Assembly (NCBI GenBank): GCA_038874595.1
Contig: JAVZCB010000003.1
Location: 1-64,000, forward strand
Direction: 5' to 3'
Length of the DNA: 64,000 nucleotides
From: Candidatus Micrarchaeia archaeon
GTDB taxonomy: Archaea > Micrarchaeota > Micrarchaeia > CAILAH01
The number at the start of each line of letters is the position of its first letter. The stretch's first letter is position 1. Below are positions 1,518 to 56,267 of this stretch, one piece after another. Under the pieces are notes generated by a model. It did not search any database. It saw nothing but the letters and a program-made list of their open reading frames with translations, and was not told the DNA's origin. Made by a program: the position numbers and the translations under genes.

Positions 1518-2429
1518 TTAACCGAGCATCATTTTATCCATATAACTTTTTATTACCTTTGTTTCAGCATTCTTGTTTTCTTTCTTGTGCCCGCTTCTCA
1601 GCGCACTCCACAAAAAGTATAGCGCAATCGCCCACAATGGGAATACAAAAAAGCTCTCAATGAATATTGCAGCAATCAGTGAGACTGCGAGAAGAGGGCT
1701 TGTTGAGTACAGCAATTTTGTGAAAATCAGTATACACCATACAGCAATGAACAGCAACCCAAAGCCAAACGTCTCTGTTTTATGTTTCATTGCAATACTG
1801 AAAGAATTGTTAATTGCATCACGCACACGCGCACCCAGGACGAGCACCTCATACTCCACATATTGGAAAACCGGATAAAGGAGTATCCATAGTGCAAATC
1901 CAAGAAACAGAGTCAGCGGCAGGAATATAAGCGGCCATGTAAGCAGCTTTTCCACAGTAAGCCTGCCTGTATCTGTAATTCTCTCCTTTATTATGTCCCC
2001 TCCAACGGCAATGAATACGATAAACGGCAGGAATAGGACGATTACCAGGCAAAACCTAAATACTATAATCTTGGCAATTCCAGGGATGCTTTCCCTTATA
2101 GATCCAAGGATACTTTGCTCATCATTGTTAACTATCTTGTGCACAAGGTATATCAGTGCAGCAAGTGGTATTATAGAGAATGAGCTCACAACAACAGCAA
2201 TAATCTCTTTCCCAAGGGCTCCAAGGTATAGCCTGCAGAATAGCAGCGAGAGTATGTAATTGTCACTCAGGCATGCCACATCCTTGTATATATCAAGTGC
2301 ATACCAGCAGATGCTGTATGTTATCACTGCAATGAAAAACAGCACGCAGAACGGGAGCACCTGCATCAAGTGGCTATTGATAAAATTCACAGCATTTTGC
2401 AGGCACCTTCCAACCAGCTCCAAACCCAT
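1518..2429 (-). CDS. Hypothetical integral membrane protein (about 6 TM)
   Basis: 303-aa ORF with multiple hydrophobic segments; stop abuts the start of the next gene. Confidence 0.7.
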   Translation of the reverse strand: MGLELVGRCLQNAVNFINSHLMQVLPFCVLFFIAVITYSICWYALDIYKDVACLSDNYILSLLFCRLYLGALGKEIIAVVVSSFSIIPLAALIYLVHKIVNNDEQSILGSIRESIPGIAKIIVFRFCLVIVLFLPFIVFIAVGGDIIKERITDTGRLTVEKLLTWPLIFLPLTLFLGFALWILLYPVFQYVEYEVLVLGARVRDAINNSFSIAMKHKTETFGFGLLFIAVWCILIFTKLLYSTSPLLAVSLIAAIFIESFFVFPLWAIALYFLWSALRSGHKKENKNAETKVIKSYMDKMMLG

Positions 2430-42602: not shown

Positions 42603-44053
42603 TGGAGGCAAACATCATAAAGTTCAATGTTAGAAGTGTAAGGGCCGCAAGTGTAATGCTAATTATCCTTTTTGCCTTTTCAGCTGTGCGTGCACAGCAA
42701 TCCAACGTGTGTGCTTCCGTGTTCAGTGGGGATTGGGTTATCTTCTCGTCGGCAGCAATTGCAATAGGTATTATAGTATACGCATTGATGTATATGATAG
42801 GAAGCATACTTAACAGACAGCAGGTAAAGGGACTTGTGCGTACCGGGCTGGCAGACATTGCAGGGCTTCTGATAGTCATAATGATGGTTGTTGCATTTGG
42901 TAATATTATGTGCACTGCAACCTTTAGCACTATAGGAATTGATACAAGAACGTTTGTGAGTTATGATTATCTTGTATCAAGCGGTGTTGACCCCGCCAAC
43001 ACGCCTCTTCTTGATTTGAGTGAGGCATACCTTACCCTTCTCTATTACCTGGGCGAGAAGCTCTATAAGTCACTTATAATACAGCTTGTATATGCCAGTG
43101 CAATCACATCAACAAAAGTTTCTGCAGGTGCAATGATTGGGGAGCTGCAGCCGCTCTCAGGGTTGGAGCCAATACTTAACATGGGAAATATGTTTTTTGC
43201 ATCCCTTGCCCTGGCCTTGATGAGTGTTTCTACACAGATGTACCTGCTAAAATTCTTTGCACTCACAGGCATCCCAACATTTCTCCCACTAGGCGTCCTG
43301 ATGCGTGCCATCCCTGCAACCCGAACCTTTGGTGCTGCATTGATAGGCCTTGCGATATCCATGTCGTTTTTCTACCCGCTTATACTCTCGTATAATTTCA
43401 TAATACTAGTGACTGCGGTAAAGCCGGATGATGCAATGCTAAACTCATTGCTTTACAACTCGCCATTATGTAATGACCCTCAGGATTGTATCAGCTCATG
43501 CAATTCAGAAGCATATGAAATAGATACAAGCGGAGGAAATATGCGCTATTTCTGTGCTCCGTGCATTCTTGTTGGGACACCCCCAAATAATGACGGCTCG
43601 TTGTGCTGCAAAAAGACCTCTATATATAAGGATGGCCAGTGCGAAATGCAGGATATCGAGCCAGAAAAAATGGGGTCTGGAGGTATTATTGCAAAAGGTG
43701 CCAAGCCGGAGGGATACGGCCTGACCTATTTCATAGGCGCATCTCTAATATTCACTATCGGGACGAAGCTGCTAAATAACGTCCCACTGGTTAGCAAATT
43801 GACAAATGCAATTTCAGGAGCTCTGATTGTGTTAATGCAAACAGGTATGGTGGTTGCGTATAAGTTTGGGCTTGGCATTATAATGAACCCGATTGCAATA
43901 ATGGCTATTCTTCTCGCCTTAAACACAAACTTTTTCTTCCTTGGGTTTATACTACCTATGATTGAGTTTGTTATAGTTATAGAATTTGTAAGAACGCTTA
44001 CAGGGTCTCTCGGCGAGCCCATTGATGTAATACAGCTCTTGAAGGTGATATGA
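42599..44053 (+). CDS. CedA/VirB6-like polytopic membrane protein 5, Cys-rich insert
   Basis: ALMYMIG; GVLMRAIPATRTFGAALIG......FYP; LGEPIDVIQLLKVI. Confidence 0.65.
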   Translation: MMEANIIKFNVRSVRAASVMLIILFAFSAVRAQQSNVCASVFSGDWVIFSSAAIAIGIIVYALMYMIGSILNRQQVKGLVRTGLADIAGLLIVIMMVVAFGNIMCTATFSTIGIDTRTFVSYDYLVSSGVDPANTPLLDLSEAYLTLLYYLGEKLYKSLIIQLVYASAITSTKVSAGAMIGELQPLSGLEPILNMGNMFFASLALALMSVSTQMYLLKFFALTGIPTFLPLGVLMRAIPATRTFGAALIGLAISMSFFYPLILSYNFIILVTAVKPDDAMLNSLLYNSPLCNDPQDCISSCNSEAYEIDTSGGNMRYFCAPCILVGTPPNNDGSLCCKKTSIYKDGQCEMQDIEPEKMGSGGIIAKGAKPEGYGLTYFIGASLIFTIGTKLLNNVPLVSKLTNAISGALIVLMQTGMVVAYKFGLGIIMNPIAIMAILLALNTNFFFLGFILPMIEFVIVIEFVRTLTGSLGEPIDVIQLLKVI

Positions 44054-54625: not shown

Positions 54626-54761
54626 CTTTCACTGATGGAGGGGGCACATCCCCCTCCCTCGTGTGTTCTACACCCACCCCCTGTTGATTAGTTTAAGGTG
54701 ATCTTTCACTGATGGAGGGGGCACATCCCCCTCCCTCGTGTGTTCTACACCCACCCCCTGT
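54626..54761. repeat. 59-bp exact direct repeat x2 (77-bp period) containing a hairpin
   Basis: Copies at 54626-54684 and 54703-54761; GGAGGGGG-CACAT-CCCCCTCC stem-loop. Confidence 0.93.
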
Positions 54762-54789
54762 AAATGTATAATATATTGTTTTTTAAAAG

Positions 54790-54987
54790 AGCGCCGAGGA
54801 GGAGACCTGGAGCTGTGCTGCAGGGTTTTTACCGGAGGTAAAACTCTGAGGCGCTCACCTATATATTTATCCATAAAAAAAGCGCCGAGGAGGAGACCTG
54901 GAGCTGTGCTGCAGGGTTTTTACCGGAGGTAAAACTCTGAAGCGCTCACCTATATATTTATCCATAAAAAAAGCGCCGAGGAGGAGA
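54790..54987 (-). repeat. 91-bp tandem repeat x2, each unit ending in the tRNA-Ser 3' exon
   Basis: GCGCCGAGGAGGAGA at 54791, 54882 and 54973 (the last is the tRNA itself); units nearly identical. Confidence 0.93.
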
Positions 54988-55243
54988 TTTCCATTGCAGC
55001 CAGCACTAAAGACAGCCGGCGATGCAATTTGAACTCCTAACCCCGTTAGGGGATACGCTGTCCTTTTTCTTTCGGTTTTTCGCCTTCGGCGAAAATCCTA
55101 AAGAAAACCGAAACTAAAAGAAAGAGACAAATCTCTTTCTTTGGTCTCGGGTTCCCTTTCTTAGGGAATGGGATTATAGGAGAAGATATACATCCTCACC
55201 TATACTCCAGGCGTACGCGTTAACCGGGTTCCGCCACCTCGGC
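54974..55243 (-). tRNA. tRNA-Ser(GGA) with two introns (37/38: 55060-55204; 59/60: 54988-55027)
   Basis: Exons join to GCCGAGGTGGCGGAACCCGGTTAACGCGTACGCCTGGAG|AGCGTATCCCCTAACGGGGTTAGGAGTTCAAA|TCTCCTCCTCGGCG; long variable arm, G73; usual position upstream of rps13. Confidence 0.88.
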
Positions 55244-55342
55244 GTAGGGAGCCGGCGCCCCCTACCACCCCGGCAACCGAAGCTGTAGGGAGCCGGCGCC
55301 CCCTACCACCCCGGCAACCGAAGCTGTAGGGAGCCGGCGCCC
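55244..55342. repeat. 41-bp GC-rich tandem repeat x2.4 abutting the tRNA-Ser 5' end
   Basis: GTAGGGAGCCGGCGCCCCCTACCACCCCGGCAACCGAAGCT at 55244 and 55285, partial copy at 55326; GTAGGG/CCCTAC stem. Confidence 0.93.
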
Positions 55343-55484
55343 ACACTTTTGCGCCTGCAAAAGGTGCCCGCAAACCACTCGGTTTGCTTGGCTTACATCT
55401 CTCTTGAAGATGCCTGTTGCGCTTATATGGCGATAATTGGATTTAATAAAGCTTAAATTAGTTGCAATGCTCTTTTGTGCTTAT

Positions 55485-56267
55485 ATGGCCACCCTCCCAA
55501 ACCTTTTCGTTTATATACCAACATACAATGTTTCGCGCCAGATATCCTCACTTATCACAGATTTAGAGTCGACACTTTCATCACTCAGGCGCTCTGGCCA
55601 TATAAGGGGCTATAAGATAATCTGTGTAAATGACGGCAGCACAGATGATACTTCTAAAATATTAGCCTCTCTCAAAAGAAAAGTTCGTTCGCTCGAGGTT
55701 ATCAGCTTCAGGAAGAATAAAGGTGTTGTGGACGCAACACTTGCAGGCATGTCGCGTGTAGCAAAGCTTTCAAAACCAGACGATATCGCTATACGAATGG
55801 ATTCGGATTATGAGCATAATCCAGACGATATTCCACGCCTTATTTCAGCTATTAAGGATACTTCTGTGCAGATGTGCTTTGCATACACACCGCTTGAAAT
55901 GAAATTAGGGTACCGTTTCTTCATGCTCAACTTTCTTATTGGTGGCTATGAGAACAAAAAACTGTTTGGTGTGTGGGCACCACAGTTCTGCCCCGGCTTT
56001 TTTGCAGCGCGCGCATCCTTGCTGAAATCCGTACTCACAGAAGTAAAAGCTGCTGTGAAGGAGTATGCACAGCGTTATTCATCGCAGATGATACATCTTG
56101 ACCTTTACATTGCGTACTTGGCATCCAGAAATGGAAAAGTGCGGTTTATCAAAGCGAGCCCAATCAAGCCAGAATGGATAATCAGGAAACCTCTTACAAA
56201 GGTATACAGGTATCTTGAAGCGCATAATAACTTTATGGAGTTCATCGCAGGGCGGAAGCCCCGTTGA
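55485..56267 (+). CDS. Glycosyltransferase family 2
   Basis: IPTYN, VNDGSTD, NKG, MDSD.EH.P. Confidence 0.9.
   Translation: MATLPNLFVYIPTYNVSRQISSLITDLESTLSSLRRSGHIRGYKIICVNDGSTDDTSKILASLKRKVRSLEVISFRKNKGVVDATLAGMSRVAKLSKPDDIAIRMDSDYEHNPDDIPRLISAIKDTSVQMCFAYTPLEMKLGYRFFMLNFLIGGYENKKLFGVWAPQFCPGFFAARASLLKSVLTEVKAAVKEYAQRYSSQMIHLDLYIAYLASRNGKVRFIKASPIKPEWIIRKPLTKVYRYLEAHNNFMEFIAGRKPR

Follow-up and report, generated by a model that had tools for sequence, protein, structure and literature searches.

tRNA-linked repeats and related systems

The closest described systems are the tRNA-linked repeats of Escherichia coli, the 178-bp repeats of tyrT and tyrV. In strain K-12, tyrV shows three copies of the last 19 nt of the tRNA (nt 58–76), 178 bp apart from each other, which overlap the annotated RttR RNA and the tpr ORF. 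RttR is released from the transcript by tRNA end-processing. To our knowledge, the maker and the function of such repeats have stayed unexplained since 1978, and we know of no tRNA splicing in E. coli.

Two tandem 91-bp units of comparable architecture lie in the stretch of 64,000 nucleotides analysed here (the window), which comes from an archaeon of the Micrarchaeia. As in E. coli, they are located directly behind a tRNA gene, here tRNA-Ser(GGA), with further cases at tRNA-Ser(UGA), tRNA-Ala and tRNA-Asn, and they terminate in a copy of the tRNA 3′ end whose start falls in the T-loop, at nt 58 for tyrV and at nt 60 here. There is no sequence or Rfam similarity to RttR, which makes the units analogues and not homologues. 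They are half as long as those of E. coli, possess a conserved two-hairpin core and a 5′ strand rebuilding the acceptor stem, and do not encode CCA. A short ORF is annotated in E. coli (tpr), whereas the one found here is not conserved; the unit is an annotated small RNA there and a predicted fold here. The host also differs: it is an archaeon whose T-loop introns occupy the position at which the copy begins.

Archaeal bulge-helix-bulge (BHB) tRNA introns at position 59/60 are cut by the epsilon2 EndA of Micrarchaeia (PMC3239211, PMC4090602). The copy in the units starts exactly where the T-loop intron of this tRNA-Ser gene ends, and one of the two hairpins (hairpin 1) is common to the units and to a 59/60 intron of a sister genus. 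Unlike BHB introns, the units have no central helix with the T-loop and sit behind a terminator. Split or permuted tRNA genes are known from Nanoarchaeum, Caldivirga and Thermofilum pendens, with a junction at 59/60 in T. pendens (PMC3218864). The free-standing nt 60–73 segment corresponds to the piece displaced in the permuted tRNAs of T. pendens, but no orphan 5′ part, no complementary leader and no BHB accompany it. Three genes of this genome start with the tRNA-Ser acceptor strand, each with its own 3′ end. A split tRNA 3′ half gene was ruled out, as the orphan 5′ part and the complementary leader are both missing.

Integrase att duplications are likewise direct repeats of the 3′ part of a tRNA, starting in the T-loop and arranged in tandem; here, however, the assembly gave no integrase match, and the 41–91 bp insert is a conserved structure. 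The t-elements of Haloferax are tRNA-like processing signals located upstream of 5S rRNA, whose processing they direct. With these the units share a tRNA-like helix that, by analogy, might recruit tRNA end-processing enzymes, although they retain only the top of the acceptor stem.

What is new is the two-hairpin core with a basal stem made from both acceptor strands, its occurrence in four families of Micrarchaeia and with two class II tRNAs, the clean rejection of splicing and the occurrence of hairpin 1 as both a trailer and an intron element. The E. coli type of repeat architecture occurs in DPANN archaea as a conserved, covarying two-hairpin cassette, and its copy starts at the position where half of the tRNA genes of this lineage carry an intron. 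The gains are a searchable family definition and a clean negative test of the idea of spare exons. A hairpin that one genus has in a tRNA trailer and a second genus within a T-loop intron also bears on the origin of archaeal tRNA introns and of permuted tRNA genes.

Organization of the tRNA-Ser(GGA) locus

The genome under study (G000; 918 kb, 44% G+C) is represented by an assembly that is 93.5% complete, in which the window lies on contig 3. Relatives are labelled G001 (a congener), G007 (sister genus), G128 (family f3), G148 (f8) and G088 (f15).

The tRNA-Ser(GGA) gene (55243–54974, minus strand) consists of three exons interrupted by two introns (Table 1). The spliced sequence of 85 nt is called as tRNA-Ser(gga) by ARAGORN, and the unspliced gene is called neither by ARAGORN nor by Rfam. 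A scan of the window at Rfam gathering thresholds gave one tRNA only and no known RNA family at the units.

Table 1. Positions in the window of the parts of the tRNA-Ser(GGA) gene and of the two units behind it.
Feature	Position	Strand	Remarks
tRNA-Ser(GGA) exon 1, nt 1–37	55205–55243	−	
Intron 1, 145 nt, canonical 37/38	55060–55204	−	starts with the 10-mer common to the units
Exon 2, nt 38–59	55028–55059	−	long variable arm included
Intron 2, 40 nt, T-loop 59/60	54988–55027	−	end TGGA-AA pairs with T-loop nt 54–57
3′ exon, nt 60–73	54974–54987	−	first direct-repeat copy; then C + T7
Proximal 91-bp unit	54883–54973	−	opens with T-run and AT-rich spacer
Proximal unit, basal-stem 5′ strand	from 54947		
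Proximal unit, hairpin 1	54935–54916		
Proximal unit, hairpin 2	54915–54897		
Proximal unit, nt 60–73 copy	54896–54883		
Distal 91-bp unit	54792–54882	−	layout as in the proximal unit
Distal unit, basal-stem 5′ strand	from 54856		
Distal unit, hairpin 1	54844–54825		
Distal unit, hairpin 2	54824–54806		
Distal unit, nt 60–73 copy	54805–54792		
C + interrupted T-run past the last copy	54785–54791	−	right end of the third direct repeat

Both Tandem Repeats Finder (54785–54987, period 91, 2.2 copies, 98% matches) and the layout of the sequence confirm the two 91-bp units that a preliminary description of this DNA had placed behind tRNA-Ser. Each unit is composed of a 77-nt body and an exact 14-nt copy of nt 60–73 of the tRNA-Ser, followed by C and a T-run. 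The earlier statement that the unit end reproduces the tRNA from exactly the 59/60 junction to the discriminator is therefore correct, both copies being exact. Since the nt 60–73 segment with its C and T-run is present at the gene and at both units, a direct repeat of ~21 bp occurs three times, at a spacing of 91 bp, and alternates with two inserts. A single base separates the bodies of the proximal and distal units, a T/C difference on the 5′ side of the basal stem.

The identity of ten nucleotides between the units and the start of the 37/38 intron, also reported earlier, is present as well. This 10-mer has eight occurrences on the two strands of the 918-kb genome. It was not found in the homologous units at tRNA-Ser(UGA) or in the congener, and it is thus a local feature outside the conserved element. 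For the same reason, its absence from all homologous units, a role of the 10-mer as a splice signal was dropped.

The ATG with which each unit of the window opens starts a frame of 33 or 68 codons, rich in Arg and Pro (54874–54776 and 54965–54867, minus strand). A tpr-like protein-coding gene was rejected: the frame shifts in the unit on contig 4, where one loop base is extra, and the units of the congener have no ATG. An own promoter was discarded too, the TATA-like box being specific to the window and missing from the other units, with a start that would fall inside hairpin 1. Further upstream of the gene and of the leader repeats described below, an 18-nt box containing CCATATAAGC is found in two copies (55414–55431 and 55472–55489), 58 nt apart. 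These CCATATAAGC boxes may be promoter elements of the tRNA-Ser transcription unit.

Fold, covariation and distribution of the cassette

The unit is predicted to fold into a three-way junction made of a basal stem and two hairpins, in which the pyrimidine-rich middle of the nt 60–73 copy is left single-stranded. The hairpin of the preliminary description is real, but it is only one of two in this closed junction. On its 5′ side the basal stem carries the first 3–5 bases of the tRNA, and on its 3′ side it uses the end of the nt 60–73 copy. The copied segment begins with T60, continues through the 3′ halves of the T-stem and acceptor stem and includes the discriminator. With 4–7 bp followed by an internal loop and a further 3–5 bp, the basal stems are short. 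For five copies from three genomes, RNA fold z-scores range from -2.9 to -6.0.

A homologous unit, in one copy and with 44 nt identical, is located behind tRNA-Ser(UGA) on contig 4 of the same genome. The congener has one unit behind each of its two tRNA-Ser genes, neither of which contains a T-loop intron. These units and those of G000, five copies in all, share one predicted fold. A covariance model was built from the five copies at the tRNA-Ser loci of these two genomes and run over 151 genomes of the class. It revealed a unit behind tRNA-Leu(CAA) in G128 (45.7 bits), another behind tRNA-Ser(CGA) in G148 and an array of 3.5 units behind tRNA-Ser(GCU) in G088. Under strict filters, clear matches are present in only five of the 151 genomes, and the distribution is thus patchy. 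Lower-scoring matches in G053, G070, G075 and G096 were rejected as generic T-run/A-run hairpins, none of which lies beside a tRNA. For strain variation, unit patterns were run against metagenomes (two scans) and genomes (one scan), and the congener alone was returned.

In an alignment of nine units, which was fitted to the model, 97.5% of the pair cells are standard and both sides have changed in 10 of the 22 pairs. None of 500 shuffles attained this result, and slid controls pair at 35–55%. The basal stem reads CGCC/GGCG with tRNA-Ser, GCAG/CUGC with tRNA-Leu and GCU/AGC with tRNA-Ser(GCU). In G128, G148 and G088 the unit reproduces nt 60–73 of the local tRNA at its 3′ end and the first 3–5 tRNA bases in its basal-stem 5′ strand, which means that the basal stem switches with the tRNA.

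G148 also contains a cassette of two hairpins and a basal stem of its own (model R1, 23 bits), which lies right after the stop codon of a protein gene (contig 6, L045, 433–560, plus strand). It is flanked by a direct repeat of ~20 nt, whose copies are 110 nt apart. Its place behind a protein gene indicates that this type of cassette is not confined to tRNA genes.

Copies of the tRNA 3′ end at other loci

With a purpose-written finder based on the acceptor and T-arms, 40 tRNA genes were recognised in the genome, where standard tools found only ~20. Half of these (20/40) carry a T-loop intron at 59/60, of 26–236 nt. Downstream copies of nt 60–73 (at most two mismatches, within 500 nt) accompany four of the 40 genes, namely the two tRNA-Ser, tRNA-Ala(GGC) and tRNA-Asn, and no upstream copy of this segment was found at any of the 40. 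The preliminary description had pointed to other tRNA loci as a check on the architecture; copies of the same type occur at these four genes and in other genomes.

The tRNA-Ala(GGC) is followed by 2.3 units of 63 nt and the tRNA-Asn by ~5 copies with a 55-nt period, so that copy numbers of 1, 2, 2.3, 3.5 and ~5 are seen across loci. A T-run lies between tRNA-Ser and each unit, and no T-run intervenes in the trailers of Ala and Asn. The bodies of the Ala and Asn units are unlike the Ser cassette; by eye, the Asn hairpin resembles hairpin 2 of the Ser unit of G148. Both types are met again in further genera of the family: the Ala unit is present in G007 and G005, degenerate in G002 and missing in G001, and the Asn unit is present in G002 and G007 and missing in G008 and G003. 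Changes in the tRNA ends of G007 (Ala nt 66, Asn nt 65) are mirrored in the downstream copies, and in the Ala unit the spacer base that pairs with the changed one is altered too. Some copies are imperfect, with a 2-nt deletion in G148, one mismatch each in G128 and G002 and two mismatches in the Asn array of G000.

The copy boundary and tRNA splicing

All 20 T-loop introns of the genome end in YGRR-NN before T60, and four of the intron bases pair with T-loop nt 54–57. They thereby supply the four-base central helix of a BHB site, in which the pairing intron bases sit two positions ahead of the 3′ splice site and 3-nt bulges flank the helix. The units end in TCCAGG in the window, in TGCAGA in the congener, or in GTTCGC or GCTCGA, and none of these is able to pair with UUCA. 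No BHB signature was found ahead of the unit copies, versus 20 of 20 for real T-loop introns. As the YGRR-NN end is lacking in every unit, the units are very unlikely to be spliceable alternative exons.

This speaks against the earlier suggestion of alternative 3′ exons, according to which a read-through transcript would be spliced from nt 59 to a distal copy. The exactness of the copies of the window and their start at the splice junction speak for it, and the idea is nevertheless very unlikely. In addition to the missing intron end, strong T-runs intervene before each unit, hairpin 2 takes up the bases needed to pair with the T-loop, the copies of G148, G128, G002 and the Asn array are imperfect, and the tRNA-Ser gene already has a 3′ exon of its own.

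The copy boundary does coincide with the splice junction, as noted in the preliminary description, yet this coincidence is not peculiar to splicing. A start at 59/60 is shared by genes that have a T-loop intron (both tRNA-Ser of G000; Ala and Asn of G007) and by genes that lack such an intron (in G000, Ala and Asn; in G001, both tRNA-Ser; tRNA-Ser of G088; tRNA-Leu of G128). The right end of the repeat varies with the locus, from nt 73 to ~7 nt beyond. The start at nt 60 in intronless T-loops, together with the nt 58 start in E. coli tyrV, indicates that the boundary is set by the structure of the tRNA and not by splicing. Starts at nt 58 or 60 also imply that the copied piece is the whole 3′ strand of the stacked T-stem/acceptor helix. 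The splice-junction match is best read as two features fixed by one tRNA geometry, position 59/60 of the T-arm being the structural twin of 37/38 in the anticodon arm.

Relationship with T-loop introns

The orthologous tRNA-Ser(GGA) of the sister genus G007 has a 59/60 intron of 72 nt which contains hairpin 1. The unit and intron versions of hairpin 1 agree at 16 of 18 aligned bases (p ~0.0005) and lie at the same distance from the exon. A search with the hairpin-1 pattern gives this intron as the sole match in the whole G007 genome; in G000, the pattern is confined to the three Ser units.

Trailer units and T-loop introns might accordingly be regarded as two outcomes of one process at nt 59/60, either by duplication of a T-loop intron with the 3′ exon and terminator or by cassette insertion with duplication of the 3′ exon; a unit would become a new 59/60 intron once its proximal exon copy is lost. 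We consider such an intron-linked origin unlikely. It draws on the hairpin shared with the orthologous G007 intron, its only match in that genome, on the T-loop introns in 20 of 40 tRNA genes of G000, on the 59/60 introns in the Ser, Ala and Asn genes of relatives, and on the extension of the repeat from the 3′ splice site into the terminator. Yet the unit bodies do not resemble the present T-loop introns of their own genes, with p values of 0.3–0.9 in five local alignments (Ser of the window and of contig 4, Asn of G007 and of G008, Ala of G007). No relic of a 3′ exon was found inside the 20 T-loop introns of G000. The nt 60 start is also seen where the gene has no T-loop intron, and E. coli, with no known tRNA splicing, has copies from nt 58. 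For a route through RNA a reverse transcriptase is missing: no RVT_1 match was obtained in the assembly, and RNA-mediated copying was rejected on this ground. A by-product of intron gain, as proposed earlier, is conceivable though unlikely, with the hairpin in the G007 intron in its favour and the dissimilarity between each unit body and the intron of its own gene against it. A decayed tRNA copy was likewise rejected as the origin of the unit, alignments of the bodies with tRNA nt 1–59 giving p values of 0.4–1.0.

A bolder form of this idea, which in our view is rather unlikely, is that trailer units and T-loop introns represent two landing states of one family of hairpin cassettes targeting nt 59/60. 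Insertion with duplication of the 3′ exon would leave an intact tRNA and a unit; loss of the proximal exon copy, or insertion without duplication, would yield a new 59/60 intron, and the duplicated ends would be raw material for permuted tRNA genes. If true, this would offer a concrete route for the gain of archaeal tRNA introns and the first mechanistic handle on tRNA-linked repeats.

Origin and possible role of the units

We lean towards the view that the 91-bp units are archaeal tRNA-linked repeats, that is, non-coding two-hairpin cassettes whose basal stem comes from both acceptor strands of the neighbouring tRNA. A single ancestral unit, as still found at tRNA-Ser(UGA) and in the congener, would have become two in the window when the 21-bp repeats underwent slippage or unequal crossing-over. 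Expansion and contraction would keep the copies identical to the tRNA end, assuming concerted evolution between repeats of 14–21 bp. The cassette may have spread between the two tRNA-Ser genes by recombination through their shared ends of ~20 bp; at the Ser loci of G000, identical ends of this length flank the cassette on both sides. The units would take no part in splicing, and would be transcribed only by read-through of the T-runs, or as a plain trailer at tRNA-Ala and tRNA-Asn. By analogy with E. coli RttR, the transcript might form an acceptor-stem-closed three-way junction that serves as a substrate of RNase P/tRNase Z. We consider it more likely that the cassette persists as a structured selfish or neutral repeat than that it serves the host, though the compensatory changes and the retention over four families could reflect a host function and not mere persistence.

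The latter possibility would make the unit a mimic of the tRNA end useful to the host, a small RNA that is co-transcribed or released from the trailer and acts as putative substrate or decoy for enzymes of tRNA ends. Candidates are RNase P, tRNase Z, the CCA-adding enzyme, a synthetase or a tRNA-directed nuclease, and the mode of action might resemble that of the Haloferax t-elements or of RttR. The conserved and stable fold with 10 covarying pairs in four families, the basal stem that follows the cognate tRNA, and the Ala and Asn end copies that share the tRNA substitutions of another genus (with the Ala spacer partner changed too) all speak for it. We judge it somewhat unlikely all the same. 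The occurrence is patchy, as the Ala unit is missing in G001 and the Asn unit in G008 and G003; only four of 40 tRNA genes of G000 have units, and the number of copies is not stable. Between tRNA-Ser and its units there are T-run terminators; transcription from the TATA-like box of the window, which the other units do not conserve, would begin within hairpin 1; and selfish palindromic repeats keep their stems as well.

Two further origins are far less probable. Integrase att sites that survive at the tRNA 3′ end as scars or decoys, as considered in the preliminary description, agree with direct repeats that start in the T-loop, a classic mark of integration, and with the known tandem accretion of such sites. 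They are highly improbable here. The units are tiny (55–111 bp), and their body, which occurs with different tRNAs in four families, is conserved and covarying in structure and has a 5′ strand that is also tRNA-specific. The 6–7 nt ahead of each copy differ from the T-loop and do not reproduce an overlap region, identity beginning at T60 and in some copies at A59. The absence of an integrase, first noted for the surroundings of the locus, holds for the whole 93.5%-complete assembly, in which the Phage_integrase profile (PF00589) has no match; the same profile was positive in 14 of 14 reference genomes used as control. An assembly artefact that doubled one unit is hardly credible. Short tandem repeats are prone to mis-assembly, but a pure artefact is at odds with the one-base difference between the units and with comparable arrays at three further loci of the genome, some of them of 2.3 to ~5 units, and in independent assemblies of other genomes.

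Off-target insertion of CRISPR spacers (neo-CRISPR), with a 31-bp target duplication and an insert of ~36 bp, was rejected as well. The periods are 91, 111 and 76 bp with identical inserts, and the assembly gave no Cas1 match. Contig 6 ends in a CRISPR array (76862–77770; 31-nt repeat, period 66–69). The genome also contains more than 10 pairs of direct repeats of 17–26 nt, 65–71 nt apart, often at gene ends; this spacing is close to the CRISPR period.

Other repeats around tRNA genes

Several additional repeats adjoin tRNA genes in these genomes. In G088, three units are located upstream of tRNA-Ser(GCU) (contig 5, L046, ~1860–2010, minus strand), each of which starts with a copy of tRNA nt 1–10 and ends in part of the acceptor 3′ strand. 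They mirror the 3.5 downstream units, so that this tRNA lies inside arrays of both its ends.

The tRNA-Ser(GGA) of the window is preceded by a GC-rich leader unit of 41 nt (55244–55342, minus strand), repeated 2.4 times with 100% identity and ending exactly at position -1/+1 of the tRNA. Its 17-nt repeat and hairpin adjoin other tRNA genes on contig 2 (~43850–43986), contig 5 (~96600–96798) and contig 4 (~78831), and are found inverted inside a T-loop intron on contig 2 (11957–12200). A leader array of 80 nt, repeated 2.7 times, precedes tRNA-Leu on contig 1 (24517–24732).

A tRNA on contig 2 (43987–44348, L015) combines the acceptor 5′ strand of tRNA-Ser with a short variable region, a discriminator T and a long intron in the anticodon region, and is probably tRNA-Cys. 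It is followed by hairpin units of 64 nt (1.9 copies), which do not copy the tRNA end.

Downstream of the 91-bp units, the window contains two identical modules of 59 nt (54626–54684 and 54703–54761, minus strand), each formed by a G-rich arm, a 9-bp GC hairpin and a CATCAGTGA tail. Relatives of this module are present inside tRNA introns, namely the 37/38 intron of tRNA-Ser(UGA) in the congener (L011, ~600–650) and an intron on contig 3 (129032–129206), and in the trailer of tRNA-Asn on contig 6 (~28560).
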